Source: Myxococcota bacterium (GTDB lineage: Bacteria > Myxococcota_A > SURF-8). Taken from it: a stretch of DNA of 64,000 bases. The first letter of the stretch is position 1; the number at the start of each line of letters is the position of its first letter. The stretch covers positions 4,032,001-4,096,000 of the forward strand of contig OZ223209.1 in the NCBI GenBank assembly GCA_965140415.1. The letters run 5' to 3'. Below the pieces are notes generated by a model. The model did no database searches. It saw only the letters and a program-made list of their open reading frames with translations, and had not been told where the DNA came from. The position numbers and the translations under genes were made by a program. Positions 30,926 through 62,398 of the stretch are shown here, in pieces.

Positions 30926-31000
30926 TCCCCAGTAGCTCAATGGTAGAGCGGGTGGCTGTTAACCACTAGGTTGGCGGTTCAAGTCCGTCCTGGGGAGCCA
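30926..31000 (+). tRNA. tRNA-Asn (GTT)
   Basis: TCCCCAG acceptor stem, AGCTCAATGGTAGAGC D-arm, CTGTTAA anticodon loop, GTTCAAGTCC T-arm, encoded CCA. Confidence 0.97.
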
Positions 31001-32560
31001 GTAAGAACGCAAGCCGTCGATTTCACCATCGGCGGCTTGTTTTTGTTTAGCCCCTTCCGCAGCTTCCGCAATCATATCAAAGGGTTCGCGCCATGTGGGG
31101 TGCATGCTGCCTTCCTTGAAGGAGCAGTTGCAAAGTAGCAAATTGAGCAATCGGCGCTTTTCATGACTTGATTGGCTTTTAAACAGTGATACCGCATTGT
31201 TAGCCAAGTTTAAAAGTGTCACCCCCAAATCAAGGTAGCTGTCCTCGGCGTTTTGGTGCTTGGCAATGGCCCCCATGCACTCGTCTTGCTCCTTACGCAC
31301 GCCCTCGGCCATGCCCTTGAACATATCGTCCCCAATCAGGCCACTCAGCTTGTCCTCATACATGGCGTGCAGCTTCTTTTGCAGGTTGTCGTAACGGCGT
31401 TGCAGCCGCTTAACCGCATCAGCATGGAATTCCTTCTCCGTGGAATGGCTTTCTTTGAGCGCTTCCACCACCCACCCCAAGATTTCGTCGTCAAAGTGTA
31501 GTTTGGCCAGCAAGTCCACAAACAACTTGTCCAGCACCTTTTCCCTGACGTTCCTTTCCGGGCACTTGCCTTTGGATCGATACCCGGAGCAACGGTAGTA
31601 CACGTATTTGCCTTTGTGCAGGCTGCCGCTCATGGCACCGCCGCAATGGCCGCAAGTAACCAACTGCGCATAGGCAAACTTTTTGGGGCTTTGGCGGCGG
31701 TTCGTGGTTCTGCGGTTATCCAGCACCTTTTGCACTTCGTCGTATAGCTCCTTGGGCACGATGGCTTCGTAGTTGCCTTGGTAGTATTCGCCTTTCCACT
31801 CGAAATCGCCGGTGTAAACCAGTTGCCGCAACATCTTGTGGACTTGGCTTCTGACCAGCTTTCTGTAGGGCGGTTTGCGGTTGCGCAAGCCCATGTCCGT
31901 TGCCAAATCCACGGCTTGCGAAATGCAATATTGGCCGGTGGCGACCTCTTGGTACAGCCGCAACACCAATGGGGCAGTTTCGGGATCGGGTTCGATCACG
32001 TTCTTACCGTTGACGTTGGTGACATTGCGGTAGCCGATGGGCGAGTAGCTTGGCCACATACCTTCCTTGGCCTTTTGCAGCATGCCCTTGCTGGCCTCTT
32101 CACCCAAGTTCTCACAGTAGTTCTTGGCCATCAGCACCTTGATGCCGTGAAACAGCTTCTCGCTAGAACGGCTGTCAGGGCTGATGATGGTGTTCTCTTT
32201 TACCAAGCACACGGTAAGTTTTAGGTCATCCAGCGTAACCCAATCCTTCAAGTTGCGGTACAGGCGGTCGGTTTTCTCTACCAGCACCGTTTTGCAGAAA
32301 CCGGGGCCACCCTTTTTCAGTTCTTCCGCAAGAAACGCTGTCATTTTGCCAAATTCGCTGCGCCCTGCCTGCTTCGCTGTTTCCACGTCGATGTATTGGT
32401 GCAAAATCTCCATGCCTTCGCGCTCGGCGTACTTTTCCAGCAGTTCAATCTGTGCCGGTATGCTGTAACCTTCCTTCTCCTGATCCTTGGTTGACACGCG
32501 GGCATACAGCACCGCCTTTGTTTTGCCTGCCGCAATAGTGCTTGCTTGTTTGTGGGTCAT
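30959..32560 (-). CDS. large serine recombinase 1 (integrase); C-terminus reads antisense into tRNA-Asn
   Basis: YARVST catalytic motif, DRLYR, recombinase domain, CGHCG..C zinc ribbon, coiled coil; ends WLPRTDLNRQPSG*. Confidence 0.93.
   Translation of the reverse strand: MTHKQASTIAAGKTKAVLYARVSTKDQEKEGYSIPAQIELLEKYAEREGMEILHQYIDVETAKQAGRSEFGKMTAFLAEELKKGGPGFCKTVLVEKTDRLYRNLKDWVTLDDLKLTVCLVKENTIISPDSRSSEKLFHGIKVLMAKNYCENLGEEASKGMLQKAKEGMWPSYSPIGYRNVTNVNGKNVIEPDPETAPLVLRLYQEVATGQYCISQAVDLATDMGLRNRKPPYRKLVRSQVHKMLRQLVYTGDFEWKGEYYQGNYEAIVPKELYDEVQKVLDNRRTTNRRQSPKKFAYAQLVTCGHCGGAMSGSLHKGKYVYYRCSGYRSKGKCPERNVREKVLDKLFVDLLAKLHFDDEILGWVVEALKESHSTEKEFHADAVKRLQRRYDNLQKKLHAMYEDKLSGLIGDDMFKGMAEGVRKEQDECMGAIAKHQNAEDSYLDLGVTLLNLANNAVSLFKSQSSHEKRRLLNLLLCNCSFKEGSMHPTWREPFDMIAEAAEGAKQKQAADGEIDGLRSYWLPRTDLNRQPSG
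30995..31000 (+). other. att core GAGCCA (left junction of element 1)
   Basis: Same hexamer in the same codon phase (TGG CTC, Trp-Leu) at 54189-54194. Confidence 0.75.
31011..31048 (+). terminator. tRNA terminator embedded antisense in recombinase 1
   Basis: AAGCCGTCGAT-N6-ATCGGCGGCTT followed by GTTTTTGTTT. Confidence 0.75.
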
Positions 32561-32916
32561 CTTTCGTCCTTCCCGCCTGATCGGCTGCCTGTTGCCATGC
32601 CCTGTGCGACAATAAGCATACGGAGAATTGCCGCATGGAGCAACTCGAATGTGCTTGCAATGTGCAAGCAAGCCTTCGTAACCTCGACACTTTTTGGTTT
32701 ACAGGGGTGTCTTACCTGCCGCAAAGGGTGTTGCCTTTGCTTGATTGCCACCCAACCCTGTTTGCTTGGCCATTGCCGTGTGGGGTTGACCCTTGCTTGC
32801 CAGCCTTTGGCCCCTGCATGCTGCATGGCCACGGTCCTGCAACGGCGTTGCACCGCCTTAATAGGAAGGGGGTGACTTATAGGTACGTCTAAAAACGCTG
32901 AATCGTTTTTTAGGCG

Positions 32917-33792
32917 CTATTTTGCCTTGCCGAAAATGCGCAATATCTTCCGGTTGACGTTGTGTTGTTGGCAAGCATTAGTCCCATCTTCAATGTGCCA
33001 GTATATGTGGAATGCCGCCCGCCGCACTTTGACGCGAATCCCACCGGTGACATTTTTCAGCACGATACGTCTTGTAATATGGGCGGGCGGCACATATGAG
33101 TACGGCAGCAATACTCTGCCGTGCCCATTTCTAAGAAACCATATGGTTACACCCTCAAGAAAAGCAGCTTGATAGGCGGCGTTTTTCTCTTGTCTATTGA
33201 ACGGGCCGGGCACATCCACAACATGCTTTACCTTGCTTTGCCCTTTCGTGTGGGCGCTCACGGTTGCCCGGCATACCCCAGCCTGCTCCGCGATTGTTTC
33301 CCGAGTTCGTCCAAGGATGAGTTCAGGCAGTGGGTTTCTCAACCGCTGCCGCCAGTTTTGCGGCTTCTTCGGTTGCGGATAGGCCGCCAGTGCTTGTGTG
33401 TAAAATCTGTCCAGCTTTTTAAACCAACATGGCGACACCACCCACAGTTTGAAGGTAAACACGACAAAGCTATCGGTTGGGCGGCCATGCTCGGTCCGTC
33501 TGCTCATGTTGCGCTTTGCAAGTTCGGTCGTCACCCGTAGCCATCCGAAAATATCGGCATGCGTGCCTGCCATGTTGATGCGGGCAAAACCGCCGTTTTG
33601 AAGCAGCGTCCAAATGGTGTAGGCGTCCTTGCAATGGTTGTCCTTGAGCCAAGCCAGAAATTGCTTTTTGCCAATGCGCCCTGATCCGTTGTTCAACTCC
33701 TTGTGACAGGCCGTTGCTAGCACCCATGCCCACAATTGGCGTTTTGTACCGTGGTCCACATACGGGACCACGGGAAGGTGAATAAATGTCAT
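32917..33792 (-). CDS. basic HTH-containing protein, candidate replication initiator
   Basis: RETIAEQAGVCRATVSAH HTH; ATGA-coupled to the upstream small gene; position next to the integrase. Confidence 0.5.
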   Translation of the reverse strand: MTFIHLPVVPYVDHGTKRQLWAWVLATACHKELNNGSGRIGKKQFLAWLKDNHCKDAYTIWTLLQNGGFARINMAGTHADIFGWLRVTTELAKRNMSRRTEHGRPTDSFVVFTFKLWVVSPCWFKKLDRFYTQALAAYPQPKKPQNWRQRLRNPLPELILGRTRETIAEQAGVCRATVSAHTKGQSKVKHVVDVPGPFNRQEKNAAYQAAFLEGVTIWFLRNGHGRVLLPYSYVPPAHITRRIVLKNVTGGIRVKVRRAAFHIYWHIEDGTNACQQHNVNRKILRIFGKAK

Positions 33793-34001
33793 CGCTTGTC
33801 AGCCCTGCCCTTGGCCGTGTTACTGGCTTCGGCTTCGTTCTCTTCGGCCTCTTTCGACCACTGCATGAGCACGTCGAAAAAGCCTGCAAATCGTCTGGCG
33901 ATCACGCGGCATTGCTCGTCAGATAGTTTCTGCCCCAACCGGGGTTCCCAGACCTCTCTTGTGCGCCGCATGAAGTCTGGATTTGGTTTCGTCCGTTCCA
34001 T
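33789..34001 (-). CDS. small LSR-associated protein, candidate recombination directionality factor
   Basis: 70 aa; TREVWEPRLGQKLSDEQCRVIARRFAGFFDVLMQW resembles small proteins commonly seen beside serine recombinases. RDF role is inference. Confidence 0.55.
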   Translation of the reverse strand: MERTKPNPDFMRRTREVWEPRLGQKLSDEQCRVIARRFAGFFDVLMQWSKEAEENEAEASNTAKGRADKR

Positions 34002-34103
34002 GCGTAAAGCATAGCAACCGTGCGAAATGATCGCAACGCCTAACTGGTTGTTATTGTTCCAATATTTGGCTTTTTGGCACGTTGGCAAAAAGTGAAGCTG
34101 TTT

Positions 34104-35198: not shown

Positions 35199-35199
35199 G

Positions 35200-36246: not shown

Positions 36247-36268
36247 AAGCCCCTTATGCTGCCCATAC

Positions 36269-37441
36269 CTACAGTTCTTCCTCATCCCGCATGGTAGCAA
36301 AGAACGTGTCGTCCACCTCTTCAAGCTCTAGCTGGGTTTTCTTGACGCCAAGGCCGTACTTGATAAGCATGCGCACCAACTCGTCGCCGTTTATCAGCGT
36401 AATGGGTGCCGCATTCGGGAAAAGCGCCGCCTCTTGGCAGCCCTTGGTAAAATCGCTCAGCGTTATCAGCGTGCCGCGAATGGCATTGTGGTAGGGCAAG
36501 CAGCCCCGCAACTGGTCGAGGATCGGGCGGGCAACGTTGTTTCGCTGGCGTTTGACCTGCACCACTTCGGTTACGGTGGTGATACCGAACTGCACGCTGC
36601 CCACCACGTCAATGCCCTTGTCGCCGCTTACTTTGGTGACTTCGACATCTTGGTAATCCATCGCGTCCAAGAGCGCCCCGACAAGCTCTTCAAACTTTGC
36701 GGGCGGCATGTTGTGCAGGGTTTCCCTCAGTTGGTCGCGTTGTTCGGTGTTGAACGCCTGCACCATGCGGGTGATGTCCTGCTTGGGGTTTTCGCCCTGC
36801 GGTTTGGCCGCCCCAATGTATTCATTGCCCGCATCGGTAATGCTGTAGCTGTTGCCCTCGCGCATAACAAGCCCGCGTTCCACAAGGTTGAGCAAGCGCC
36901 GCCGCAAGGTGTCAATGGTTGTGCTGGTTTTGCCAAACTTGCTGTACTTGTGCAGGTAGTCGCCCCAATCGCCCAACAGGTCGCCACGCTTGGCGCTGGG
37001 TTTTGCCGCAAGCAGGGTAAGCAGGTGGAAAATGCCTTCCTGCTCGTCAAGTTCGCGGACAATGGTTTCGTCACCAACCAGAAACGCTTCGCCATTGTCG
37101 CTTAAACTATAGACACCCGAACCATTCGTTTCCAACAGTTCGTAAAGGTTGACAAGTAGATACCCGCCATAGGCGTGGCGCGGGTTTACCTGCTTCATAC
37201 TGTCCCACCACAGGTGATTGGCCAGTTCGGCACTTACACCTCGCAAACGCTCGTGTATCCAGTCATCAGGATCGGACCAATCCACCGGCTTTTGCGGTGT
37301 GCCGGTCTGCTCGTGGATGCATTTGATCATCTCACGGATGTTTTCCTTTGGTGTACCGTGCCAGATGCGAAGCAAGTGTCGCACGGTGGTGTAGTCGGGG
37401 AACAGGGGCGAACGCACACGGTATTGGCTGGGTTTGAGCAT
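36269..37441 (-). CDS. mrr: Mrr-family type IV restriction endonuclease
   Basis: FEELVGALLDAMDY, SGDKGIDV, VVQVKR, TLSDFT, LINGDEL. Confidence 0.88.
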   Translation of the reverse strand: MLKPSQYRVRSPLFPDYTTVRHLLRIWHGTPKENIREMIKCIHEQTGTPQKPVDWSDPDDWIHERLRGVSAELANHLWWDSMKQVNPRHAYGGYLLVNLYELLETNGSGVYSLSDNGEAFLVGDETIVRELDEQEGIFHLLTLLAAKPSAKRGDLLGDWGDYLHKYSKFGKTSTTIDTLRRRLLNLVERGLVMREGNSYSITDAGNEYIGAAKPQGENPKQDITRMVQAFNTEQRDQLRETLHNMPPAKFEELVGALLDAMDYQDVEVTKVSGDKGIDVVGSVQFGITTVTEVVQVKRQRNNVARPILDQLRGCLPYHNAIRGTLITLSDFTKGCQEAALFPNAAPITLINGDELVRMLIKYGLGVKKTQLELEEVDDTFFATMRDEEEL

Positions 37442-37445
37442 GGGG
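37383..37445. repeat. direct repeat A copy 1 (mrr 5' end); copy 2 at 38681-38743
   Basis: 63 bp with 6 mismatches, counted by eye. Confidence 0.9.
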
Positions 37446-37452
37446 CTTATTC

Positions 37453-38631: not shown

Positions 38632-38643
38632 ATCATTTCCCTT

Positions 38644-38739
38644 TCACCCTTCCTCCACCAACCGCACTTTATCCATCCTTACGGTGGCATAGTCGGGGAA
38701 CAGGGTCGAACGCACGCGGTATTGACTAGGTTTGAGCAT
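38644..38739 (-). pseudogene. 31-codon chimeric mini-ORF: mrr N-terminus fused to the type IIG RM C-terminus
   Basis: MLKPSQYRVRSTLFPDYATVR-MDK-VRLVEEG*. Confidence 0.8.
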
Positions 38740-38763
38740 GGGGTGCTGTCTCGTTATTTTAGG

Positions 38764-39483: not shown

Positions 39484-39484
39484 T

Positions 39485-39512
39485 TTTCACCCTTCCTCCA
39501 CCAAGCGCACTT
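39485..39512. repeat. direct repeat B (type IIG gene 3' end); second copy at 38642-38669
   Basis: 28 bp with 1 mismatch. Confidence 0.9.
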
Positions 39513-42500
39513 CGGTGTCGGTGAGGCCGTACAGCTTGTAGGTCAGGGCGTTCATATCGGCTTCGGCACAGGCGATTTGCTCGTCCAGCGCTTGGATGTC
39601 GGCGTCGATTTTCACCACCTGCTTGCAAATGGCGTCGTTGTCCGTTTTGCGCAGCTTCAGCAGCAAACCCAGCAGGCGTTTGGCGTCGAACTTCTCGGTT
39701 ACGTTCGTCTGCCGCGCCTTGTGCCGCCACTGTGCCGCAATGAAGCTGGCTTCGTCGTCGTCCACGAAAATGCCCTCGATCAGCGCCGCGCCGTTTGCCA
39801 ACACGCGCAATTCGCCCATGTCGTTTTCCACCGTCAGCCGCACACCCGGTTGCAGCATGGCGTTGATGCGGTCGAAGTAGGCGGTCAGCTTCAATTCGCG
39901 TTGCAGCTTGGCCCATTCTGTCAACGCTTTGCCTTTCAACTCCGATGGCGCGGTTTTCTTAAGCGTCGCCACGGTTTCGACATCATCCCACAGCCATTTT
40001 TCGTTGCGCATTTCGTCGCTGCATTGCGGGCTGTTCAGGCGCTTGTCGATTGCAAGCTGCAAGTCGCGCCGTTTGGTGTGCAGGTCTTGCAGGTGTTTGG
40101 CCTTTTCGGCCACCTTGGCTTTGTCGTCGTCGCTGGCTTTGGGTATGGGCAGGGGGGCGATAAACTGTTTGTTTGCTTCGTAATAGCCGCCCGCCTTCGG
40201 TTTGGCAATGCGCTTGAAAATGTAATCGCAAAGCGGGGCATTCAACACACCAAGCAGAAACCAGCCGGTTTCGATATCGGTAGGTATAATGCCGTTCACC
40301 CGCACGTTGTTGAAGTAAAACGCGCCTTCGCTGTCGTAGCACACCCGCATGCCGGGCACCGTTTGCCCCACACACAGCTTGGGGATTTCCTGCTTGTCGA
40401 TGTTTTGGTGGCGGCCAAAGCGATACCATTGGTCGTCGTCAAATTTGCCCTTCTCCCGTGCTCTTAGTTCTTTTTCGTAGCTCACAAGGTAAGCCCACGC
40501 TTTGGGATATTGTTTCGCCATTTCACTGGCAGTATAAAGGTGCACTTTTCCCTTTGTCACAAGGTACGGAAAAAGCAAATGCGTGTTTGTGTTTGGTACT
40601 TCAAAGCGCTTTGCATCCGGCCCTGAAACCAGCGGGTGCATGATGGCATCTTCAATTTCCACTTCCACCGGCTCTTTATTGCCCTGTGGTTTGTGCAAGT
40701 ATCGGTTTGGGGCTATGCGCTGCAAGTGGTATATGTAATCGGCACTTGTTTGAATGCCAACCATAATGCCTTTGCAAGATTTGTTCAAACGCTTGCAGCT
40801 TGCAATCAACTTTTCATGAAGCGCCCGCTCGGTGTTGGGCATAAGCACCCAACCGTCATCTTGCGGCAATTCGGCATAAAAGGCGCTGTCTTCCACTTCT
40901 CGCCAATCCACCGCCGCAATATCCTGCTTGCCATGCGGGGCAAAGACGCACCGGATGCGGTCGTGCGGGAAGCCGGTAAAGAATTGCAGGGCGGTATAGG
41001 TAATCGCCTCGTCAAACACCTGATAGCTTTTGAAATCAATCCAGCGATCCAGCCGCCGCGTGCGCCTGAGCTTTTGCCGCAAGCCCCTGCCGTATTCGTT
41101 GACCATCCACACGTTGGGCGCGATGTAGCCCATTTTGCCCTGCGGGTTCAAGAGTTCCACGCCACGCTCGATAAAGGGCAGATACAAATCGAAGTTGCCC
41201 GTTTGCGTGCTTTCATAAAGCGGCCCGCCGCCCTCGCGCTTGGCGTTCAACAAATAGCCCGCCACGTCTTCCTGTATCTTGCGGAAGTGTTGCAGCTTTA
41301 CATAAGGCGGGTTGCCGATGACGCAATCAAAACCGCCGTTTTCGCGGTTAAACACTTCGGGGAAGGTTTCCCGCCAATCAAAGGTGTTCACGCGCTCCTG
41401 CTCGTCTTCCGAGAACATATCCCGGCTTTGCTGCACTTGGGCGTAGAAATCATGGCCGATCAGCGAATTGCCGCAACGGATGTTTTCGTCCAGCGTGGTC
41501 AACGGGCGATCCGGCAGCGCCGTATGCAGCCACAAAGCCAACCGGGTGATCTCCACCGATTCGGCGTTGATGTCCACGCCATACAGGTTTTTGGAAAGCA
41601 CCGCACGCATGGCCGCGTGGGTGTCGAACAGGCCCATGCTGCCGGTCACGCGCTCAAGCTCTTTGGCGATCCACTGGCGTTGCTCGTACAGATATTTGAA
41701 CGCCTGAATCAGAAACGCGCCCGACCCGCAAGCCGGATCGACCACCTTCAGCTCGTCCATGCGGTCGCTGTATTTGTGCAGGGCGGCTTCGTATTCCGCA
41801 ACCACCTTGTCTTTGCGCTTGTCTTGGCGGTGGGTGCTGATTTGCTCGTCGGTGACATCGGTAAACTTGTCAAAGCCAAGCTCTTTGCGAATCTCGGCCA
41901 AGCGCGCCCCAACGGTTTCCTCCACGATGTAGTGCGTCACCCATTCGGGCGTGTAGTACACACCATCGCGCTTGCGCTTGGTAAGCTCTGTCAGCGATTC
42001 GCGTCCCTCGGCATGAGCTTCCATCACTTCCAGTTCGGTAATGCTCTGCTCGAAAATGCGCCCCATAGCCGTAAGCGTCAGGGTGCGCCCGTCGCCTTCA
42101 TCCGACGCGCCGAAGTTGTACTTGGCCGACAAATACAGCAGGGTGTCGGGGTATTTCATCAGACGCTTTTCGCTCTGCCCTTGGTTCTGCCTGCAAAACA
42201 CCGTGTTGGGCAACTTAAGCGCGTCCATCTCCTTGTCTTCGGCAAACAGCCCACCGTTAAAGCGGTTGATGCGTTCCTTGCCAAAGGGCGTGCCGTCGCG
42301 CATGGATACAAACAACTGCCGGATGCGGTTCCATGCGTTGGTGCCGTTTGGGTCGTAGTATTCGTCGTTGGACACGTAAATCAGCACATCCCTGAGCACG
42401 TTTGGCGGGAAGCTAAGCTCGCGCCCCATGTCCTCGCAGTACAGGATGAAAATGCAGCGATCCATAATGCGCTGGGTAAACTTGACCAAACGCCGCAAGC

Positions 42501-44782: not shown

Positions 44783-44925
44783 CGAATAATAGCACACACC
44801 ATCCCTTGTCGCGCCGACAATCGGCCTGTGACGGGCGTTCGGCACCGGGCGTAGGGTTGGGCTGGCTCGGCGGGCGGCCGGGGCGAGAAACGGCGAGTCA
44901 GGGGAATTGCAGGATGCAAGGGGGG

Positions 44926-47583
44926 CTATTTCTTTTTTTTCTTTTTACGCCGTTCCCAAATATCTGCTACCCAATTTTCGAGTGCGTCTATGTCCTGCTT
45001 TAGCTGGTCGGGGGTGGGCATATTAAAACCGCCCATCGCTGCTGCATCGTCGTGCCCTCTGTGGAAGGCAGAACATTTCCCCATGTTATCATCGATAACC
45101 TTGTAATCACTTTCCGAAATATCTAGTGCATTCTCAAGCCGTTGCGTTTCGACTGATGCCTTATACCGCATTACTGTTCGGTTAAGCAGCACTTCCTCGA
45201 TGCCTCTTTCCCACGCTTCACGAAGAAAACCGTACAGTTCCTTTGCTGCGGTTTCGTAATCTTTGCTGGTTTGGGTGCGGTGTATTTTTTCGGCGGCATG
45301 CCATTTATTTCTAAGCCAACCAATGCGCCTTTTGGTGGTCATGCCGGGCCACGGCAAACCCGGTTCGCATCGACCAACTCGGTCCCCCTGTCTTACAAGT
45401 TCAATGGCGGCGAAATCAGCTCTCATTTCTTTGGCGGATTCCTCCAAGGCCAGCAAGAAGATGATGTCATGTGTGAACACAACTACCTGTCTACCTCTTG
45501 CTTCTTCGGCCAATCGTCCAGCCACCCATCTCCTATATCGGTGGTCAAGTGAGCACACAGGGTCGTCAAACACAATGCCTGACTCTGTGGTTACATCAAG
45601 CTCCGCAAGAAAGGCTGCCAAAGCAATAACGCGGTGTTCGCCCTCGCTCAAAATGACATCAGGGTTGGGAGCCGTCGATGCCGTGTTTGCCAGCACAATA
45701 TGGTGGTATATAGCCCCCCTTTGGCCACCGGCGCTTTCCAACTTAGGCTGAATACCTACGACCCCAAGCTTCTTTAACTCGCTCTCAAATGCTTTACACA
45801 AACTGTCGGTAATTTCTTGCTCAGCAATTGCCTTGGTTGCCCGTGTTATATGTGATGTGTTGGTTGCGGCTTTTGCCTTGGTAAGCAACTCAATTCGCTT
45901 CAACGCATCCAGATAACGGAGCACCTGTTGTCGCTTTTGGCCAAGCATTTCTTTCGCTTCTTGCTCGCTTATCTGCTGTTGCACCTTTTCCTGCTCGGCG
46001 CTGTTGTCCTTGTTGCGCAGTTCGGCAGCCTTTGCTTGTTTATCATCAAGCAATTTCTTGAATTTGGGTAAGGCGTCGTCTGACATCTTGCCAATATCTG
46101 GCATTGTTGGCGATTCGCCACCTCTTACAACCAGCTCAAGCTCACCAATTGCCGCCTGTATTGCGGTTGCAGTGTCGAGGAATTCTCGCAGGGCTTTCGC
46201 TAAATCGGATGCATCAGCCTCTATCTCTTTGAGAACATTGTCGTCGCTGTCACCACGCACCCTAAGTTTTGCTTCTGCCATTGCCTTGCAAGCTGCAAGA
46301 ACCGCCTCTTGTGCTTTTTCCTCCTGCTGTTGCGTATCCGTGCGCACAAATTCTTCAAACCGTTGCAAACGATCTGTGGCGGCAACATCAAGGGGTTGAT
46401 GGCAAAGTACGCATTGCGCCTGATCTTCTGTAACCGGAAATTCCTGCTTTGAATAGGCGGCTTCGGTGGAGTATCTCCGAGCCGCATCCCAAAGAGTTTT
46501 CCACGGGCTTGTTCCCACACCGTTGAGAAGCGCATCATCATCGCTGAATGCCTGCTGTTGGGCGGCCTTGGAAGCCTGCTGTGCAGTGGTATATTCCGCA
46601 AGCTTGCTGGCCAATTGTGATATAGCATTCTCACCCAAACCAGCCTGAATCTTTACAAGGCGCTGGTATAGAGGGTTGCATTGGCTTACAAGCCTGTCGA
46701 TAGCTATTGCATCGTTTTGCGGGTTTGCTTTCTTAAGCCGTTCAAGCTCTTTTTTTAACTCTGCTAGCTTCTTTTTCTCTTCATCGCTCAAACCTGCAAG
46801 CTTTTTGACCTCTTCCGGGTCTGTGGATGCATCAAGGCTGCCAAACAGTTTGCTTACTGCGGTGTTTTGTGGAGGGTCGAAGGGCAACCCGTCATCTTTA
46901 ATGCGGTTACTTTGGTCAAACTCTGCGTTTAGCACCTCTTGCACCTGCCCGCATACTTTGGCTAGCTGCGATAAGAGATCCATGCCAGCCGGTTGATAGG
47001 CAGGGTCGGTTTTATCCGCAATGTACACTTGGGCTGAATTGTGGTCGAACACGCTGATCTGTGATAGTTCATCCGGCGCTGGCTTGTTGTTTTGCCAGTC
47101 GAAAGCAAGTTTCGTTTGCCTGTTAATGCTGAACTCAATTGTGGCTTTTGGTTCAGCGCGGTTACCGGTGTTGGCGTTCTTCTCAACTTTCTCTTTTTGG
47201 CCACGTGCACGGCAAGCCTGTTTTATTACTCTCGCATAGCTTGACTTACCGCTGCCATTGTCTCCGTAAAATACGCTTAGACCATTCTGGCTGAATGGTA
47301 GCGTTTGCTTATCTACTGTTGCACATACATTGAAATTCTCATGAAGCTTTTCAAGGCGAATCGATTGTATATTTGTGCTTTGGTTTGGAAGGTGGCTTGC
47401 CTCAATGGGCGTTGGTTCAAGCTCAATACCCTTCCAGCCCTGCTCCTTTTTGCAAAGCTTCGCAACTTCCTCAATATCCTGCTGCGATAATGGGCCATTG
47501 ATATGTACAATTCTACGCAGAGCGTCTTGCTGCCATTCGGGCCAATCTTGCGCACAACTTAAAACTTGTTGGTAAACGTTCAT
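44926..47583 (-). CDS. RloC-like SMC/ABC ATPase with zinc hook and possible HEPN-like C-terminus
   Basis: GDNGSGKS, CVLC hook within coiled coil, LSEGE, VFDDPVCSLD, FTHD; C-terminal helical domain with HRGHD. Confidence 0.7.
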   Translation of the reverse strand: MNVYQQVLSCAQDWPEWQQDALRRIVHINGPLSQQDIEEVAKLCKKEQGWKGIELEPTPIEASHLPNQSTNIQSIRLEKLHENFNVCATVDKQTLPFSQNGLSVFYGDNGSGKSSYARVIKQACRARGQKEKVEKNANTGNRAEPKATIEFSINRQTKLAFDWQNNKPAPDELSQISVFDHNSAQVYIADKTDPAYQPAGMDLLSQLAKVCGQVQEVLNAEFDQSNRIKDDGLPFDPPQNTAVSKLFGSLDASTDPEEVKKLAGLSDEEKKKLAELKKELERLKKANPQNDAIAIDRLVSQCNPLYQRLVKIQAGLGENAISQLASKLAEYTTAQQASKAAQQQAFSDDDALLNGVGTSPWKTLWDAARRYSTEAAYSKQEFPVTEDQAQCVLCHQPLDVAATDRLQRFEEFVRTDTQQQEEKAQEAVLAACKAMAEAKLRVRGDSDDNVLKEIEADASDLAKALREFLDTATAIQAAIGELELVVRGGESPTMPDIGKMSDDALPKFKKLLDDKQAKAAELRNKDNSAEQEKVQQQISEQEAKEMLGQKRQQVLRYLDALKRIELLTKAKAATNTSHITRATKAIAEQEITDSLCKAFESELKKLGVVGIQPKLESAGGQRGAIYHHIVLANTASTAPNPDVILSEGEHRVIALAAFLAELDVTTESGIVFDDPVCSLDHRYRRWVAGRLAEEARGRQVVVFTHDIIFLLALEESAKEMRADFAAIELVRQGDRVGRCEPGLPWPGMTTKRRIGWLRNKWHAAEKIHRTQTSKDYETAAKELYGFLREAWERGIEEVLLNRTVMRYKASVETQRLENALDISESDYKVIDDNMGKCSAFHRGHDDAAAMGGFNMPTPDQLKQDIDALENWVADIWERRKKKKKK

Positions 47584-47882
47584 CCCCACCTCCAAAACAC
47601 CGCAAAAAACTACCGAAACGATGTGGCAACTATAAGGCATTTCAGGCAGACTGAAAAGAATAATATGCAAAGGTAATACTTTAAGTGTGCCAGAATATGT
47701 CATACCTTGCATGGTGCTGCTTTGTGGCAACAGCGCGTGAAGGGCGACACAGCCTGATTGCAGCTTGCAACTTGCAATTGCAGGCTGCAAGTTGCGGGTC
47801 GCGGGGTCTTCGCATTTTCTCGCAAGGAATGAGTTGCTCCGGGGCGCGAGGCTCCGTTAACATGGCTGCAATAGGAGGCGCG

Positions 47883-48272: not shown

Positions 48273-48680
48273 GTCAGCACACCCGCAAAACGGCGGTTTT
48301 CAAGGGTGCAAGCGGTTGCGGCGCTCACCGCCTGCCAGCACGCCAACGTTTTGCAACTGAAAAGTCGCGTTTTAAGCCCTTCGGAATGACCGATCCATAC
48401 CAACCCATATCCCGTGCCAACAAAATGCAACAGCGGACCATTCTCGCGGCGAGAGTGATATGTCTGTGCTGGGTCTGTGCTAGGTCTTTGCCCCATAATC
48501 GCTCACACCCGCTCCATTACTGGCTGTAAGCGTCGAAAACCGCCGTTTTGGTGCGACTATGCGCGGGCTTTTTAGGCAGCGAAAGTTGATTGCCGCAAAC
48601 GGGTAGGTTGGCGTGCCGGTAAACCGTCTGCAAAACCATGCGGCAGGTGCAGCCTGCCATTAGCCCGTTAGGGCTTTTCA

Positions 48681-48736
48681 GTTATCCGTTCTCTGTTCTC
48701 CGTTATCCGTTATCCGTTATCCGTTATCCGTTCTCA
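48681..48736. repeat. 8 x 7-bp tandem repeat (GTTATCC/GTTCTCC)
   Basis: Read directly from the sequence. Confidence 0.9.
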
Positions 48737-49031: not shown

Positions 49032-49481
49032 TCAAAACCTCCCAAACCGGTTTAACTGGTTTTGAAAACCGCCCGGTTTGTCATTCGAACGCAAAATTAG
49101 ATTCGATCGGGAATTTCGGTGTCCACACGCTAGCACGGTTTTGCGCTTTGTCTGCTTGGTTTTGTGCTTGGCTTTTTGTTGCGGTTTCGCCTTGGGTTTG
49201 GCTTTGCCGCCCAACTGCCAATCGCGCTTGGGGTCGAATAGCCGCAGGTGACGGGAGTGGTTGACCGGCTTTCGCTGTGGGTGGGCTTGGGATGTGTTGG
49301 CTTTCGCTTTTCGCTGGTAGCGTCGAATGCGCACCACGGATGCTTGCCCGGCAGGCTGCACCAACTGGCAGTACCCGGCCTGATTGCAAGCTGCAATCAT
49401 CACCGCGTTTGCAAGCTGCCACACGTCCGGGGTAAGCCCGCCCCCACCATTTAACAAAAACAGTAAAAGCCAGAGTTTCAT
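49032..49481 (-). CDS. possible small basic secreted protein
   Basis: Starts 8 nt after the upstream stop; hydrophobic N-terminus, K/P-rich middle; may be spurious. Confidence 0.35.
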   Translation of the reverse strand: MKLWLLLFLLNGGGGLTPDVWQLANAVMIAACNQAGYCQLVQPAGQASVVRIRRYQRKAKANTSQAHPQRKPVNHSRHLRLFDPKRDWQLGGKAKPKAKPQQKAKHKTKQTKRKTVLACGHRNSRSNLILRSNDKPGGFQNQLNRFGRF

Positions 49482-49488
49482 GGTGCGG

Positions 49489-50370
49489 CTATTTCACCGG
49501 CCACTTTTCGCGTTCGCCCTCGGCTACGATATCGACCAACTGTTCGGGGCTTAGCTTGTGCTCGGTGGCCAGCGCTTTGCGATACTTCTTAATTTTTGCC
49601 GCCAACGCCTTTTCGTAGGCAGCCGCTTTGTTGGCGTCCAACAGGTCTTGGCCGAACAGCGCCGTGGATTTGATATGGCCATCGCGTGCATAGCCAAGCT
49701 GCTTAAGTGATTTCAGGCTGTCCACCGCATCCAATGCCGCCTGCACTTGGTAGAAGTTGCCACCGCCAGCGCCCGGCACCTTTTTAACGATCTTCACAAA
49801 TACGCCCGGCTCCAGCGTTGGCCCAATGCTCAGACTGGTAACGGAACCAAGCAGTAGGGGCGTTTTGCGCGTCAGGCGAAACTCAAAGCCCGGTTTCAGG
49901 TCGTTGGGGTCCATAGCAAAGTATTTGAATTTCAATTCCACTAAAGCCCGGTTATCCGCTGCTTTGGCTGCCGCAAATACCTTTTGGCGTTCTGCCTTGG
50001 TAAGCCCATGTTTCTTTTCTTCCGGTGGTGCGGGCTTGGGGACTGGTTTGGCGGCTTGTACCGGTTCTGCCGGTTTGGCAGGCTGTGCAACCGGTGCAGG
50101 CTTAGTCGTTGCGTTTTCGCCCTCTGTCGCCTTTTCCTTGGTCGGAGTGGTAGCTACAGCCACAATCATGCAAACGGCCACGACAACGGCCTTTACAGCC
50201 GGTTTAAGGGGCATCTTCGCCTTGTCCTCCAATAGCTTGCCCACGGGCGGCAACAGTAGCAGGCCCGCCACGGCAACCAACCCCCACGCGCCTTGGGCAA
50301 TGTTCACCAATCCTGCCAGAATCAGAAAGACACCAGCCACCCATGCCAAAATCATCTTCGCCATTTGCAT
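49489..50370 (-). CDS. membrane-anchored hypothetical protein with Pro/Ala linker
   Basis: Three N-terminal TM segments; GAGGGAG RBS. Confidence 0.7.
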   Translation of the reverse strand: MQMAKMILAWVAGVFLILAGLVNIAQGAWGLVAVAGLLLLPPVGKLLEDKAKMPLKPAVKAVVVAVCMIVAVATTPTKEKATEGENATTKPAPVAQPAKPAEPVQAAKPVPKPAPPEEKKHGLTKAERQKVFAAAKAADNRALVELKFKYFAMDPNDLKPGFEFRLTRKTPLLLGSVTSLSIGPTLEPGVFVKIVKKVPGAGGGNFYQVQAALDAVDSLKSLKQLGYARDGHIKSTALFGQDLLDANKAAAYEKALAAKIKKYRKALATEHKLSPEQLVDIVAEGEREKWPVK

Positions 50371-50487
50371 ACACTCCCTCCTGTTCTGTTAATGCTTATT
50401 GCGCTGTGCGAACACAGCGGACAAGAAACCACAACAGCCGTTGATGGCAATCAATGCGGCAAATGCACGCGGGGAAAAACAGAGCAA

Positions 50488-52212
50488 TTATTTCGCAATA
50501 CAAGCTCCATCTCTGCACCCGTTTTCGCCACACTCTTCTTTTTTGTCTGATTGTATAGAATTGCAGGTAATCCAGTAGACATCCCTGTCATGGCAAACGG
50601 TGTCATAGTGCTCGATGTTTCTGCATGAATCCACTTCGCATGGACAATGTCCACACGACTCTTTTAGCTGCCCTAATTGGCCGTGGCAGTCATACCAGTA
50701 CACATTCCCATCTTGGCAGGCGTAGGAATCCCGATTGTCGGTGTAACAAACACCCGCTGAGCAATGGCATGTTCCACAGTCTTCTTGTTTTTCTCTTCTA
50801 TTGTCTTTGCAATCGTACCAATAAACATCATTGTTCCAACAGCTCAAATAGTGCTCGGGATCAATATCGCAGGCATCGCCAGTACAGGTGCATGATTTAC
50901 AATCCTCTTTCTTTTGCGCCAAAGCGCCTTGACAATCGTACCAATAAACATCGCCTTCGAAGCAAGCAAAGCTATACTCTTTGTCAATAACACATGCACT
51001 TTGTTCTTCCGAACATTCACACGCACCTCCACAAACAATTCTACTTTCTACCAAGCCGCATCCATCATCCAAACAGCACAGATTGTCCGGTTCGCAGCGC
51101 CGGGCATTGATTTCCTCGTAAATGGCCTGCAAAGCCGTAGCGAAGCTTTCGCCATCCGTTACCAACCGGCTTTGGCCTGTGCCGCCAGCAAATGCGACTT
51201 CGTCCAAAAAGACGCGGTTGGCCGTGGTCGTTACCGCCACCACATGCACGAAAATGCCCTTCATGAAGAGTTCCCGCGCCGCCGCAATTGCGTTGGTGTC
51301 ATCTTCGCAGGTTTCCTCGCCATCGGTTATCAGCACCACCGCTTGCCGGGGGTTGGGATCACCGAAGTTGTCCTCCAAATCTTGCAGGCTGGCTGCAATA
51401 GGGGTGCTGCTGTCTACAGCCGGGTCGGTTATGGCGTTGGCTATGGTTTCGGCGTTGTCCAAGCTCATGGGCAGGGTTTCGCCTGCACCGCAAGCCTCGG
51501 ATGGAAACTGGCGAAAGCCGATGTTATTGACGTGATCGCGCTCATCAATGGCCGCAAGAAAAGTTTCCTTTACCCACTGCCACGTATCGGCGGCAAGCAT
51601 GCTTGAACTGCGGTCGAGTACGAAAAACAACTCAGCAGGCTGGCAGCCCTCTTGGGCGCAAATGCCATCCGTGCAGGCTTGGCTTGGATCGCAGGGCACG
51701 CGCTGCCCCAACTCGCCCAAGCCGTTATCATCATCGCCGCAAGGGTGAAACCCGTATCTGTCTTCGCTGCACACCGTCAGTCCCGCCACACATTCACTTT
51801 GTGGCTCGTCGCCGTCAGTTGGCGATTCTTCATCATCGCCATCAACCTGCGGATCGTCACCGTCTGCGGGCGAATCGCCATCGGGCAACGTGTCGCCGTC
51901 CGGTATTTCGCCATCGCCGTCAACGGGTGGGTTGTTTTCGTTATCGCCATCCGCAGGAGGCGAGTCGTCCGTATCGCCGTCACCGTCATTGCTGCTTGCA
52001 AGGCACAGATTGTCTTGGCAGGCAAGCCCCTCGTTGCAGGTTCCGTTGCCGTAGCACGGGCAATGCAGGGTGCCGGTTGGGCAATCCTCGCCGTCGCCAT
52101 CTATAGCCGGGTTATCGCCGTCCGGGTTGTCGTTGGGATTTGCGGTATCCGTACCGCCGCAGGCCAATAATACAAAACAAAGGGCAAACGCCAACACACT
52201 GCTTTTCAACAT
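50488..52212 (-). CDS. lipoprotein adhesin-like: DGD linker, VWA domain, four Cys-rich DVYWYDC repeats
   Basis: LLAC lipobox; DRSSSM and ITDGEE MIDAS motifs; four ~41-aa repeats. Confidence 0.8.
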   Translation of the reverse strand: MLKSSVLAFALCFVLLACGGTDTANPNDNPDGDNPAIDGDGEDCPTGTLHCPCYGNGTCNEGLACQDNLCLASSNDGDGDTDDSPPADGDNENNPPVDGDGEIPDGDTLPDGDSPADGDDPQVDGDDEESPTDGDEPQSECVAGLTVCSEDRYGFHPCGDDDNGLGELGQRVPCDPSQACTDGICAQEGCQPAELFFVLDRSSSMLAADTWQWVKETFLAAIDERDHVNNIGFRQFPSEACGAGETLPMSLDNAETIANAITDPAVDSSTPIAASLQDLEDNFGDPNPRQAVVLITDGEETCEDDTNAIAAARELFMKGIFVHVVAVTTTANRVFLDEVAFAGGTGQSRLVTDGESFATALQAIYEEINARRCEPDNLCCLDDGCGLVESRIVCGGACECSEEQSACVIDKEYSFACFEGDVYWYDCQGALAQKKEDCKSCTCTGDACDIDPEHYLSCWNNDVYWYDCKDNRREKQEDCGTCHCSAGVCYTDNRDSYACQDGNVYWYDCHGQLGQLKESCGHCPCEVDSCRNIEHYDTVCHDRDVYWITCNSIQSDKKEECGENGCRDGACIAK

Positions 52213-52549
52213 ACAGGCCACCTCACACCGTCTTTCGTCAATAAAGACGCCCCATAAAATAATAACGGGGCAACACGCGGCGTGGCCTGCACCTCCATCG
52301 TGCGCCCCGCCCTAGAGGCACACGTGTGGTTAGCACATGCGCATATGGGTAGCGCTGTGCAGGCCACATTGTCTTGTCTCGCACTTGCGGCAGCTTTCGG
52401 TCACTGGTAACCAGCCAGTCAGCCCTTTTCAGGGCAGAAACCTGCTGCAAGATTGAGCACCTATAGTCTAGCGGAATGAATTCTTTTTGCCAAGGTCATT
52501 CCGCAAAACGCCGGTTTTCGTTGTTATGGCAAATGCAGGTGGTAGTGGG

Positions 52550-53287
52550 TTATTGGCCGTAAGGGTTGGGCTGCTGGCTTTCGCTCAACCATGCAGGCCG
52601 TTGGCCGGTTTCCGCAAAGGTAAGCAATTCGTCGGGCGTCCAGCCTTCAAACTCTGCAACGGTGTCGCGGCTGGGTTGCGACTTCGGGCCGCCGTAAATA
52701 TAGCTTTCAGCCAGCATGATCTTGGAGGCCATTTCAATCACCGCTTTTGGGTTGCGCTTGAGGCTGGCGTACACTTTGGGGTCGTTGACGGCTTCCGAAA
52801 TGGCCTTGCTTATAAACAACCGCAGGGCAGCAAGCGGGGCTTTCCATTTTTCCATAGCATCAGCCCAAGCTTGGCGCTCATCCCCCCACGCACTCTGCAA
52901 AATTCTTTGGCGGCGCATGGCCAGAGCTTCCATGTACCGGTGTGGATCGCCATGCTCAATGTATTTCTTGGCGGTGCGCCGGTTTACCGTGCACGTGTTC
53001 GCCACATATTGCACACTTTGCACTTCCATGTAGGCTTGGAACATTCGGTTGTATTTCTCAATGCTTATACCTTGCGCATTGTGCCTGCCGTCCGATTGGT
53101 GTTGGACGCCCTTTGGAACGGGGTTGACGGTGGTGCCTTTTGGGGTTTTTGGAGGGTGTGGTTGCGTGCGTGTCGGGCCTGCAACTGGGGCACCGCCTTT
53201 GCTGCCCTTTTTGTCAACGGTGAAAGGTGGCAGTGTTACCGCTGCTTGATCTTGCGTGCTGGTTTTCGCCGGTTGCTTTCGTGCCAT
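52550..53287 (-). CDS. HTH protein, terminase small subunit-like
   Basis: VQYVANTCTVNRRTAKKY HTH, helical middle, C-terminal EGWTPDELL; TerS-like architecture is inference. Confidence 0.45.
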   Translation of the reverse strand: MARKQPAKTSTQDQAAVTLPPFTVDKKGSKGGAPVAGPTRTQPHPPKTPKGTTVNPVPKGVQHQSDGRHNAQGISIEKYNRMFQAYMEVQSVQYVANTCTVNRRTAKKYIEHGDPHRYMEALAMRRQRILQSAWGDERQAWADAMEKWKAPLAALRLFISKAISEAVNDPKVYASLKRNPKAVIEMASKIMLAESYIYGGPKSQPSRDTVAEFEGWTPDELLTFAETGQRPAWLSESQQPNPYGQ

Positions 53288-53294
53288 TCTGCCG

Positions 53295-53930
53295 TTACCA
53301 GTCCTTGTACGGCACAAACCCTTGGTCGTTGCCAGTGGTTTTCATGTGCAGCCGCAAAGTGCCGTCATGCAGTTCTTTCTCAAGCGTGCTGCTTTTGCCA
53401 TGTTTTTCGTACTTATGCGGCAGGCCAACGAAAAGCCAATTGTCTGCTTCGGGGTTGGGAAACAGCCTGTTGTCTAAGACTTGTGCAAACGCTTTTTCCA
53501 AATCATCGCCATCGTGGCAGCCATACACCATGACTTTGTATTGCGCCTGTACGTCTACCAGTTTGCAGAAGTCGTCCATAACAAGGCGAAAGTTGCGGGA
53601 TGAACTGTAGTAGCTGCCCATTTCCGATTCTGCCGCAACCACAATGCCGAAACGCTTGTTATCGTTAACCCAGCCTTGCACCGCTGGAAAATTGCCAAAT
53701 TCCCCCGGCCACGCGGAGAGGGTAAAGTCCAGCATGTATTCGCCACCGTGGGTTTTGTGCCAAACGTGCAAATGCTTTTGGCTTTCAAATAGCTTTTTGC
53801 AGTTGGTTAACCCCTTCATGATAGCGGTTGTCCACGTTTTTGTGGGGTTGGCTTGCCATACTTCTTTTTTAGGCTCTATGGCTTTGCGAATGTGCCCCCA
53901 AATCCCTTTCAGTTTTTCGCGTTCGTCCAT
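53295..53930 (-). CDS. hypothetical protein, possible PD-(D/E)xK fold
   Basis: LDFT...VAAESE...DDFCKL; GGAGG RBS. Confidence 0.55.
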   Translation of the reverse strand: MDEREKLKGIWGHIRKAIEPKKEVWQANPTKTWTTAIMKGLTNCKKLFESQKHLHVWHKTHGGEYMLDFTLSAWPGEFGNFPAVQGWVNDNKRFGIVVAAESEMGSYYSSSRNFRLVMDDFCKLVDVQAQYKVMVYGCHDGDDLEKAFAQVLDNRLFPNPEADNWLFVGLPHKYEKHGKSSTLEKELHDGTLRLHMKTTGNDQGFVPYKDW

Positions 53931-54089
53931 GTTCAGTTTTTCCCTCCATGCAAAACGGCGGTTTTGCCATTTAGCAGTGTTATGCTGCAATAATACCACA
54001 ATGTGCGTTGCATTTGAAGGGCAATTTTTTGTGGGTGCAATGTTCCGACGGGCGCTTCATAGCAGGCTTTGTCGCTTTGTAACCTGTCG

Positions 54090-55838
54090 TTATGCCATAG
54101 CTTTTACAAACAACGGTGCTTCGATAGCAAGGTAATCTCGCCCCTGTTGTGGCGTCATCAAAAAGGCTGCAAAGGCATTTGTAAACGCGAGCCAATCTTT
54201 ACAGTCCGACGCACCATCGTTAACCAGTGCGTCGGGCTTTTTCGTTTTATGCTCTGATTCCACAGGGTTGGCGTGTTCGTACAAATGGACACGCATTGTG
54301 CCCTTGTTCTTGTCCTTCTTGTCCCAACGCCACTCGATGAACTCGATGTACTGCTGGAGGATGGCCCGGAGGCGCTTCCACTTGCCCTGTTTGACCAGTC
54401 CATCGACGATATCCGGGACGTTTTTGTAGGACTCTGTGATGACTTCCGCTGAGAGAAGTTTCTCCTCTGTGGCCGCTTTCTTCTCCTGCAACTTCTCCAA
54501 ATCAGCCTTTTGCCCTTTTTCATCGTCGGATAATTCGCGAAGACGCTTCCTGAGTGGGCCTACATCAGCGCCATCCTCAATGGCCTGTACGATGGTCGCG
54601 ATCTTGGCTTTCACGTCCTGTAGGGCCTTCTTGGTGCGGCTGATGTCCCTGTCCAGGGTCTTCAGGGTCTTACTGCGAAGCTCGTTTGCCTTCTTGACCA
54701 CACGCTGCATCTCTTCTTCGTCCAGCACCGCCTGCTTCAGGAGATCGATGACGAACTCTTCAGCGGCTATGGCGGGAACATACCGGGCATCGCAGTCGTA
54801 CCCGGCGGAGACGTTCTGTTTGGTGCAGTTGTAGTAATGATGGAGGCCGTTACGACCGGTGCTGGACCGCGGGGTCATCATCGACCCGCATTGTCCGCAA
54901 CGGATCAGCCCCTGCAGAAGATATTCGTGCTTCCGCTCTTCCGGCGCGATGGGCGGTCGTAGACGGTTCTTGCCGAGGATGTCCTGAACCTGGTCGAAAA
55001 GCTCCTGTGGGATGATTGGGTCGTGGACACCGTCGTACGTCTTGCCATGATGGGAAACCTTGCCGACATAGACCGGATTGGTCAGCATGTTGATAACCGC
55101 CGGTTTGCAGTATGGTGTGCCACCGTGGGCTTTTCCCCGCCTGCTGACAGTCTTGGGCGAAACGATCCCTTTCTCCCGTAAATGCTTGTGAACCTTCCCC
55201 GCACTTCCCAGTTCCACGCACTTCTCGTACACGTCATGAAGAAGGAGGTCGGCCTCATCTTCGTTGATGACGAGATGCCCCTTACGATTGGGGTCGACAT
55301 TGTAGCCGAATGGCACATGCCCGCCGTTGAATAGACCCTCACGGGCGCGGTGAGCCATAGTGTCGGCAGTTCTTTCAGCGGTCAGTTCCCTTTCGTACTG
55401 TGCGAAAACCATGTGTACACCCATAAAGGCTCGACCCGATGCACTGCTCGTGTCAAATTGTTCTTTCACGGATATGCAGTCCGTCCCCAATTCGTTAAGA
55501 CGTTCCAGCAGTCGATAGAAGTCAAGAATGCCTGCACGGCTAAGACGATCGAACTTGGCAGCTACAACGGTATTGATCCGACCGGCCTCCACGTCCCTCA
55601 TCATTCGCTGGAATTCAGGTCGATTGAAGTCCTTGCCGGACTTCCCTTCATCCCTGTATCGGTCCACGATGACCCATTCAACATCAGGATTGGCGTCCTG
55701 ATTGAGTTTGATCTGGCGCTCCATCAAGTCGAACTGGGTATCAAGTCCACCATGGTCCACGCGAGCCTGTCTATCTGTACTCACACGTCCGTAAAGCGCG
55801 CAGAGCTTTCGTTTCTTTATCTTTTTCTTCTTGGCCAT
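54090..55838 (-). CDS. large serine recombinase 2 (integrase of element 2); last 32 aa encoded by element 1 DNA
   Basis: YGRVST, DRLSR, FAQYERE, CGQCG..C zinc ribbon; AGGAGG RBS. Confidence 0.93.
   Translation of the reverse strand: MAKKKKIKKRKLCALYGRVSTDRQARVDHGGLDTQFDLMERQIKLNQDANPDVEWVIVDRYRDEGKSGKDFNRPEFQRMMRDVEAGRINTVVAAKFDRLSRAGILDFYRLLERLNELGTDCISVKEQFDTSSASGRAFMGVHMVFAQYERELTAERTADTMAHRAREGLFNGGHVPFGYNVDPNRKGHLVINEDEADLLLHDVYEKCVELGSAGKVHKHLREKGIVSPKTVSRRGKAHGGTPYCKPAVINMLTNPVYVGKVSHHGKTYDGVHDPIIPQELFDQVQDILGKNRLRPPIAPEERKHEYLLQGLIRCGQCGSMMTPRSSTGRNGLHHYYNCTKQNVSAGYDCDARYVPAIAAEEFVIDLLKQAVLDEEEMQRVVKKANELRSKTLKTLDRDISRTKKALQDVKAKIATIVQAIEDGADVGPLRKRLRELSDDEKGQKADLEKLQEKKAATEEKLLSAEVITESYKNVPDIVDGLVKQGKWKRLRAILQQYIEFIEWRWDKKDKNKGTMRVHLYEHANPVESEHKTKKPDALVNDGASDCKDWLAFTNAFAAFLMTPQQGRDYLAIEAPLFVKAMA
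54189..54194 (+). other. att core GAGCCA (element 1 / element 2 junction)
   Basis: Identical to the tRNA-Asn 3' hexamer and followed by a terminator, as at the tRNA. Confidence 0.75.
54203..54248 (+). terminator. orphaned tRNA-type terminator embedded antisense in recombinase 2
   Basis: AGTCCGACGCAC-N12-GTGCGTCGGGCT followed by TTTTCGTTTT. Confidence 0.7.
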
Positions 55839-62353: not shown

Positions 62354-62398
62354 AGGGGGTCCTCTTACACCGGTATAGTCAAAAAAGATGTCGAACGA

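Follow-up and report, generated by a model that had tools for sequence, protein, structure and literature searches.

A 64,000-nucleotide stretch of Myxococcota contig OZ223209.1 (the window, whose own genome is called G000 here) holds a single tRNA gene, tRNA-Asn(GTT), at the tip of which two unrelated genomic islands have very probably accreted head to tail, exchanging the C-terminal tails of their integrases. The island next to the tRNA, element 1, encodes the large serine recombinase (LSR) LSR1; the island beyond it, element 2, encodes LSR2 (Table 1). In the sequence of events we propose, both LSR families would cross over within the last codons of their own integrase genes, here the Trp-Leu codons antisense to the hexamer GAGCCA, so that the DNA on the other side of the junction would supply the codons downstream and the stop. 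The first to arrive was most likely element 2, which would have stood alone at the tRNA, as a similar island does in the same-family relative G001, and its LSR2 would have had tRNA-antisense codons at the end. The phage-type attachment site (attP) of element 1 would then have recombined with the junction between the tRNA and element 2. As a result, LSR1 would have acquired a tRNA-antisense tail and LSR2 would have gained the 32 codons that the far end of element 1 supplies, while the tRNA would have stayed intact and each element would have supplied a terminator-like hairpin.

Integrase reading frames and the shared core

Both proteins carry the Resolvase, Recombinase, and Zn_ribbon_recom domains of Pfam (PF00239, with E-values of 8.1e-22 for LSR1 and 4.8e-30 for LSR2, together with PF07508 and PF13408), and the serine-motif stretches YARVST and YGRVST are visible. 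By domain content, both are large serine recombinases, and they share 25% identity (104/420). The open frame of LSR1 spans positions 30959-32671 on the minus strand, with its likely start at ATG 32560 according to an alignment of 20 homologues. The protein ends in ...SYWLPRTDLNRQPSG*, where the last 11 codons and the stop, beyond Trp-Leu, are the reverse complement of the acceptor and T arm of tRNA-Asn, and the stop codon is located in the anticodon loop. LSR2 ends in ...DCKDWL followed by AFTNAFAAFLMTPQQGRDYLAIEAPLFVKAMA*. Its residues 1-550 are its own, and residues 551-582, the 32-residue tail AFTNAF...VKAMA*, come from element 1 DNA. An initial annotation of the window had read the end of LSR1 as antisense tRNA and that of LSR2 as element 1 DNA, and the translations match this reading on both counts.

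The two junctions share just 6 bp. As a class, large serine recombinases join attP to attB through a 2-bp staggered crossover. As the same annotation held, GAGCCA occurs at the 3' end of tRNA-Asn and again at 54189, encoding Trp-Leu in both LSR frames; coordinates and translations agree. The 3' strand of the acceptor and T arm of tRNA-Asn forms the left half-site of the attachment (att) site. According to ARAGORN, run on the whole 5.98-Mb genome, there is one tRNA-Asn among the 47 tRNAs, and CCA is encoded in all 47.

Taken by itself, the hexamer match is no better than chance. The window contains 22 copies of GAGCCA, compared with 33.3 +/- 5.7 in shuffled sequence, and the tRNA end is absent from the 20 largest direct-repeat families listed in a repeat scan of the window. 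Furthermore, the two LSR frames would agree at the core by chance in one case out of three, and by our own arithmetic, a run of 32 open codons has a probability of about 0.2 in random sequence of equal composition. The abundance of the hexamer and the ordinary length of the open run would thus fit a coincidence, in which hexamer and frame matched by chance and element 1 was no discrete insertion at 54189-54194. The comparison with G001 makes such a coincidence extremely improbable, because homology breaks there with base-exact precision and the closest homologue of LSR2 has the tail and the length that were predicted.

Comparison with a relative that lacks element 1

In a search of 5.8 billion protein clusters, the closest homologue of LSR2 was P0003, a protein of 561 amino acids (aa) with 95% identity. 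Its gene (locus L018) lies on a 2.69-Mb contig of G001, a genome of the same family as that of the window and of a different genus, and directly adjoins tRNA-Asn. The C-terminus of P0003, ...DCKDWLPRTDSNRRPSG, comprises 550 residues plus an 11-residue tRNA-antisense tail, and the ending WLPRTDSNRRPSG matches both the tail and the length predicted for LSR2 without element 1. The form of LSR2 that the initial annotation had foreseen for an element-1-free site is therefore the one seen in the G001 orthologue, which has the tRNA-antisense tail in place of AFTNAF...AMA. Additionally, a query with residues 541-582 of LSR2 against proteins of 320-1019 aa brought up none whose tail was similar. Over the 550 shared codons, LSR2 and its orthologue show 156 synonymous and 32 non-synonymous differences, a ratio of non-synonymous to synonymous rates (dN/dS) of 0.04. 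This strong purifying selection indicates that LSR2 has been a working gene through most of its history.

At the DNA level, two blastn matches carry the comparison: G001 895126-895204 corresponds to window 30925-31002 (96%), and G001 895197-897213 corresponds to window 54189-56202 (86.7%). These matches overlap in the core only, homology breaking at 54189 and resuming at 31002. Since they meet at the core, element 1 can be described as an insertion between tRNA-Asn and LSR2, and the sequence comparison shows it to be bounded exactly, relative to G001, by the two GAGCCA copies. The right boundary that had been proposed for element 1 at the second copy therefore agrees with the break at 54189. 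At the tRNA-Asn of G001, the element-2-like island appears alone, without element 1, as tandem accretion would have it.

Joining the ends of element 1 in silico yields an LSR1 of 554 aa that carries the 32-aa tail, with its stop ending at 54090, which reproduces the circular form envisaged in the initial annotation. The crossover would accordingly lie inside the LSR frame, and the free and integrated forms of the integrase would differ at the C-terminus. That the crossover itself falls within the 6 bp, and that excision would restore these tails, we infer from the same junctions.

In a third genome of the family, locus L002 (G002:C40:1-1772) has a short open frame that enters tRNA-Asn antisense, in another frame and with the ending ...GLEPPT; the next gene after it is a group II intron-type reverse transcriptase. 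Judging from L002, tRNA-Asn appears to be an insertion hotspot across the family.

Reading across the core in the two recombinase families

Both LSR families share the trait that the integrase frame continues through the att core into a tRNA gene, as far as homologous sequences and their loci reveal. The LSR1 family includes at least 4071 proteins at E <= 0.001 (8000 candidates scored), which come from several phyla according to their source names; the best match is 53% identical to LSR1. Tails were classified with simple regular expressions of our own, in which the T-arm-antisense signature is of the type WLPGxDSNxRPSG. Among the best 120 homologues of LSR1, 82 had the T-arm-antisense tail, 14 had a stop just past the core, and 24 had another ending. 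The corresponding numbers were 25, 23, and 7 for the closest 55 homologues of LSR2 and 13, 1, and 51 for 65 more distant matches. In the LSR1-family loci of viral contigs, the frame ended inside a tRNA or transfer-messenger RNA (tmRNA) gene in 7 of the 32 loci scanned, the targets being tRNA-Gln (three loci), tRNA-Leu, tRNA-Asp, and tmRNA (two loci). A third LSR of the window genome ends in tRNA-Glu (locus L015, G000:C1:4487901-4491830): its frame end is at locus position 3003, within the tRNA-Glu at 2963-3037 on the minus strand, and its tail reads ...PAGIEPASPA. The idea that a "PSG*" tail always denotes tRNA-Asn was dropped, as close relatives adjoin tRNA-Gln, tRNA-Leu, tRNA-Asp, or tmRNA.

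Among distant phage members of the LSR1 family, a subfamily at about 35% identity, the integrases that have no adjacent tRNA (L043, L046, L061, L056, L050, L053, L041, L040, and L064) end in a conserved tail, LExxxFIxxL...LKxxxAA, of about 33 aa. Near-identical phage integrases located beside a tRNA or tmRNA swap this tail at the same point (L056 versus L048 and L045 versus L044). Where no tRNA is present, the tail is conserved, which makes the free-form version look like genuine protein in at least some of the superfamily. Aligned with these conserved phage tails, the element 1 tail has 12-24% identity and no clear similarity. Antisense tRNA or tmRNA sequence in place of the conserved tail was observed at L048, L044, and L054.

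Order of insertion and search for excised forms

The initial annotation had proposed that an incoming element rewrites the integrase of the resident one. The comparison with G001 bears out the structural part of this proposal, and the order of arrival follows from it only by inference. The alternative is that element 1 came first, to a naive tRNA-Asn, and that element 2 integrated later at its right junction, in which case LSR2 would never have been tRNA-tailed in this genome. Tandem arrays of tyrosine-integrase islands grow at either junction. On the other hand, LSR2-type elements use the tRNA side, as illustrated by the G001 orthologue directly at tRNA-Asn, and the right arm of element 1 bears no resemblance to the tRNA arm. 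We consider this reverse order unlikely, because LSR2 would need a site without the tRNA half-site that is conserved across its family.

It is important to consider several points that weigh against accretion of element 1 onto a resident element 2 with exchange of tails. The reverse order leads to the same final structure, so that the arrangement itself does not separate the two. By-eye comparison of the half-sites in the reconstructed att sites revealed no convincing inverted symmetry. The 32-aa tail of element 1 had no relatives in the region search with residues 541-582, and recombination logic alone therefore speaks for its role as a working part of LSR1. Counting its own genome, 3 of 301 genomes contain the gene beside the tail (53295-53999); the one real match (45%) is in G002, on a short contig with no informative junction.

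An empty site was likewise not obtainable, since the flanks are non-syntenic in all of the relatives examined. A DNA search of 41 genomes matched the tRNA alone outside the window's own genome, and the reading frames around tRNA-Asn had no collinear matches in G004, G008, and G037. The flanks showed no match between G000 and G001, nor to the loci of 8 relatives, in a synteny search that also included tblastn on a 400-kb stretch.

Data on excision came from the assembled contigs of two public runs of one study, and contigs drop rare forms. In these contigs, neither a circle nor an element-1-free site was found, and the integrated junction was the only form present. A 42-kb contig has exactly the window's sequence over the junction, perhaps because the window was derived from it, and in the second run, a 686-nt contig bridges 54189-54194. 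None of the loose contig ends listed lies at the junction. The contig data are thus no evidence for or against excision. Word depth in run X2, over window positions 50000-58000, was about 30-54 on the element 1 side and about 9-26 on the LSR2 side; this hints at a strain mixture or a copy difference, contig depth not being a copy number.

The last of these points concerns the far end of element 2, where the initial annotation had suggested looking for a third in-frame tail. The homology of the G000 and G001 elements drops off steeply at 4,108,655 of the genome, past a ...CCA-T that both share, and beyond it the window genome has CheB/CheR-PAS and PAS-histidine-kinase genes. Weak similarity, above that of shuffles, persists for about 100 bp past the drop, so the far end is bracketed only. 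If the CCA at 4,108,655 were the core, the candidate free-form tail of LSR2 would consist of 15 aa after Trp in the window genome, while at the same candidate junction in G001, the tail would run in frame into a DUF2958 gene. Because the candidate differs between the two genomes, we claim no third tail: the end sought was bracketed, and the tail is a candidate that is not conserved.

Terminator-like hairpins at the junctions

Hairpin 1 directly follows tRNA-Asn and lies antisense within the 3' coding region of LSR1. Hairpin 2 occupies the equivalent place, antisense within the 3' coding region of LSR2, and without element 1 it would come next after the tRNA; its 12-nt loop explains why the terminator scanner, with a loop limit of 8, did not call it. 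Given these positions, each element would probably replace the terminator of the tRNA on insertion by means of its own terminator-like hairpin. Constraint on the hairpin DNA may account for some of the C-terminal conservation, for example of the VNxGASxC motif in the LSR2 family.

Relation to known systems

The initial annotation regarded the grafting of tails between the LSRs of different elements as undescribed. This is not so, since McMurdie 2011 (PMC3146451) reports it for dsiB of Dehalococcoides. In the account given there, the ssrA islands lie in tandem downstream of the single-copy tmRNA gene; dsiB "always" overlaps the left attachment site (attL), and its stop falls beyond the island boundary, within either ssrA or the island next to it (PMC3146451). 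The authors speculate that full function of dsiB may require the circle or a place downstream of a neighboring island (PMC3146451). This overlap means that the core idea is already in print.

As in the DsiB islands, a serine recombinase of about 540 aa is located here on the reverse strand beside attL with its stop outside the island, a likeness of layout. As those islands are described, the differences are several. The Dehalococcoides target is the tmRNA gene, with the insertion point in the T loop and a 20-bp direct repeat, whereas the target here is tRNA-Asn, with a crossover at the discriminator/CCA tip and 6 bp shared. The Dehalococcoides module has six genes, including a second small recombinase, DsiA; the neighbors of LSR1 (32917-33792) and LSR2 (56187-57746) contain no resolvase domain, and the other genes of the DsiB module were not searched for by name. 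Furthermore, the Dehalococcoides arrays involve one integrase family, in contrast to the two LSRs of 25% identity at one site here. We also set the embedded terminator-like hairpin of each element as a difference from the described islands.

Among the well-known serine integrases, those of phiC31, Bxb1, and A118/LI resemble LSR1 and LSR2 in having resolvase catalytic, recombinase, and zinc-ribbon domains; their attP lies outside the int frame, and their targets are protein-coding genes. For the Myxococcus phage Mx8, the integrase forms go by the names IntP and IntX, and the target is a tRNA locus. The initial annotation had cited Mx8 as a precedent for an attP inside int, in a tyrosine integrase, and a review confirms it: attP lies in the int coding sequence, and integration creates a new 3' end and an altered recombination behavior (PMC6070905). 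Mx8 Int is a tyrosine recombinase of another fold and chemistry, and LSR1 and LSR2, as serine recombinases, are outside its family. In what the review says of Mx8, no tandem exchange of tails between elements is described (PMC6070905).

SSV-type archaeal integrases also have the recombination site inside the integrase frame, and the gene is changed on integration (PMC7253208). These are tyrosine recombinases, and the gene is split into separated halves and inactivated, whereas here a short tail only is lost. The tyrosine-integrase arrays treated in the Islander paper are similar in that islands with their own integrases are stacked at one functional tRNA gene; they differ, as presented there, in that each junction keeps a directly repeated piece of the tRNA and the integrase is not rewritten (PMC4383910). 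In 2014, according to that paper, no serine-family integrase was known to have a tRNA gene as its target (PMC4383910). In the open-access literature, as far as its accessible text goes, no later paper on LSR families that target tRNA tips was found.

The structural reading is supported, and this locus is a real and cleanly demonstrated case of tandem accretion with exchange of integrase tails. Compared with the precedents, its novelty is moderate and lies in the tRNA-tip target, the 6-bp core, the presence of two distant LSR families at one site, and the embedded hairpins.

Possible function of the exchanged tail

We think that the exchange of tails arises mainly as a structural by-product, attP and the 3' end of int being overlapped; the tail may also have a regulatory effect. 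A stronger version would make the tail a functional switch, with full activity, or activity in the correct direction, requiring the free-form tail, the tRNA-derived tail marking the integrated state, and the graft altering LSR2. Nearly all of the homologues listed have frames without a stop ahead of the core, and the conserved phage tails of about 33 aa are replaced at the same point beside tRNA or tmRNA genes. Both the changed recombination properties of Mx8 after integration creates its new int 3' end (PMC6070905) and the similar idea raised for dsiB (PMC3146451) point in the same direction. Against this, the element 1 tail is without relatives and only 12-24% identical to the conserved tails, and the candidate free-form tail of LSR2, if the junction is right, is not conserved (15 aa in one genome, a run into the next gene in the other). 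Moreover, members of the LSR1 family vary in the stretch that immediately precedes the core. On balance, a functional switch seems doubtful to us, and we put it forward tentatively.

Cargo and extent of the two elements

The cargo of element 1 is of the kind typical of mobile islands, with restriction and other PADLOC-matched genes (Table 1) and a VWA protein, and by its gene content, the element is a defense island. Two direct repeats in it lie at the heads of neighboring genes: 37383-37445 and 38681-38743 (63 nt, 90%) and 38642-38669 and 39485-39512 (28 nt, 96%). These repeats suggest duplicated gene heads or paralogous cassettes. In addition, an intergenic stretch at 48665-48734 contains a short tandem array of CCGTTAT/CCGTTCT-like heptamers.

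Table 1. Positions of the tRNA gene, the two elements, and their features in the window
Feature	Positions	Strand	Basis and remarks
tRNA-Asn(GTT)	30926-31000	+	Putative integration target; ARAGORN; sole tRNA gene in the window
Core copy 1, GAGCCA	30995-31000	+	Acceptor-stem positions 71-72, discriminator 73, and CCA; minus strand is Trp-Leu of LSR1
Element 1	31001-54194 (equivalently 30995-54188)	.	Predicted integrative island of 23,194 bp; blastn against G001
LSR1, large serine recombinase of element 1	30959-32560	-	533 aa from ATG 32560; translation, Pfam
Hairpin 1	31009-31049 (31009-31040 plus T-run)	+	13 bp, then T-run; terminator scan; fold -22.1 kcal/mol, z -4.6
Mrr-like nuclease (PADLOC PDC-S02), element 1	36269-37441	-	Pfam Mrr_cat 2.6e-26; PDC-S02 1.1e-167
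Type IIG restriction-modification enzyme, element 1	39487-43329	-	1280 aa; Pfam Eco57I 4.1e-43; PADLOC REase_MTase_IIG E=0
AAA_13/SMC-like ATPase (PADLOC PDC-S06), element 1	44926-47790	-	PDC-S06 2.8e-220
Tail segment, right end of element 1	54090-54188	-	32 codons plus stop; present C-terminal tail of LSR2
LSR2, large serine recombinase of element 2	54090-55838	-	582 aa; translation, Pfam
Core copy 2, GAGCCA	54189-54194	+	Trp-Leu of LSR2; exact break of homology with G001
Element 2, left part	54195-64000	.	Continues past the window to about 4,108,655-4,108,735 (window-equivalent 76,655-76,735)
Hairpin 2	54203-54251 (54203-54238 plus U-run)	+	12 bp, 12-nt loop, then U-run; fold -20.9 kcal/mol, z -4.4

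According to Pfam, element 2 carries a pentapeptide-repeat protein, a NACHT-like protein of 1216 aa, a second type IIG enzyme, ThiF, and DUF2958. Some of its modules are shared with the G001 element, namely, window 57842-58649 (82%) and window-equivalent 66835-76263 (94%). Two adjacent predicted proteins of element 2 (L031:6736-8293, that is, G000 4,102,736-4,104,293) are 100% identical to those encoded at G001 911095-912661; they have 322 and 206 aa, with weak ATP-grasp and DUF4870 matches. Proteins that are 100% identical across genera, compared with 95% for the integrase, suggest a recent exchange of modules.

Significance

Serine integrases are major tools of genome engineering, the control of their direction is still studied, and their att sites are usually viewed apart from the gene. 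This locus is a natural case, exact to the base, of an att core that lies in the gene, so that neighboring DNA, even that of another mobile element, determines the C-terminus. The family comparisons indicate that tRNA tips are a common target of serine integrases, contrary to the 2014 statement (PMC4383910), and that automated integrase annotations routinely count tRNA-antisense codons as protein. The locus also shows defense islands stacked at one tRNA gene with no damage to it, each with its own terminator-like hairpin. The layout occurs in two large families, of which that of LSR1 alone has more than 4000 matches. As a more speculative reading, and one we judge quite unlikely, the segment after the crossover would act, throughout a very large superfamily of serine integrases aimed at tRNA tips, as a sensor of the integration state, and in a tandem array an incoming island would hand the resident a surrogate free-form tail, switching its excision or re-integration. 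If that were true, conflict or cooperation between mobile elements would be written into the integrase gene.

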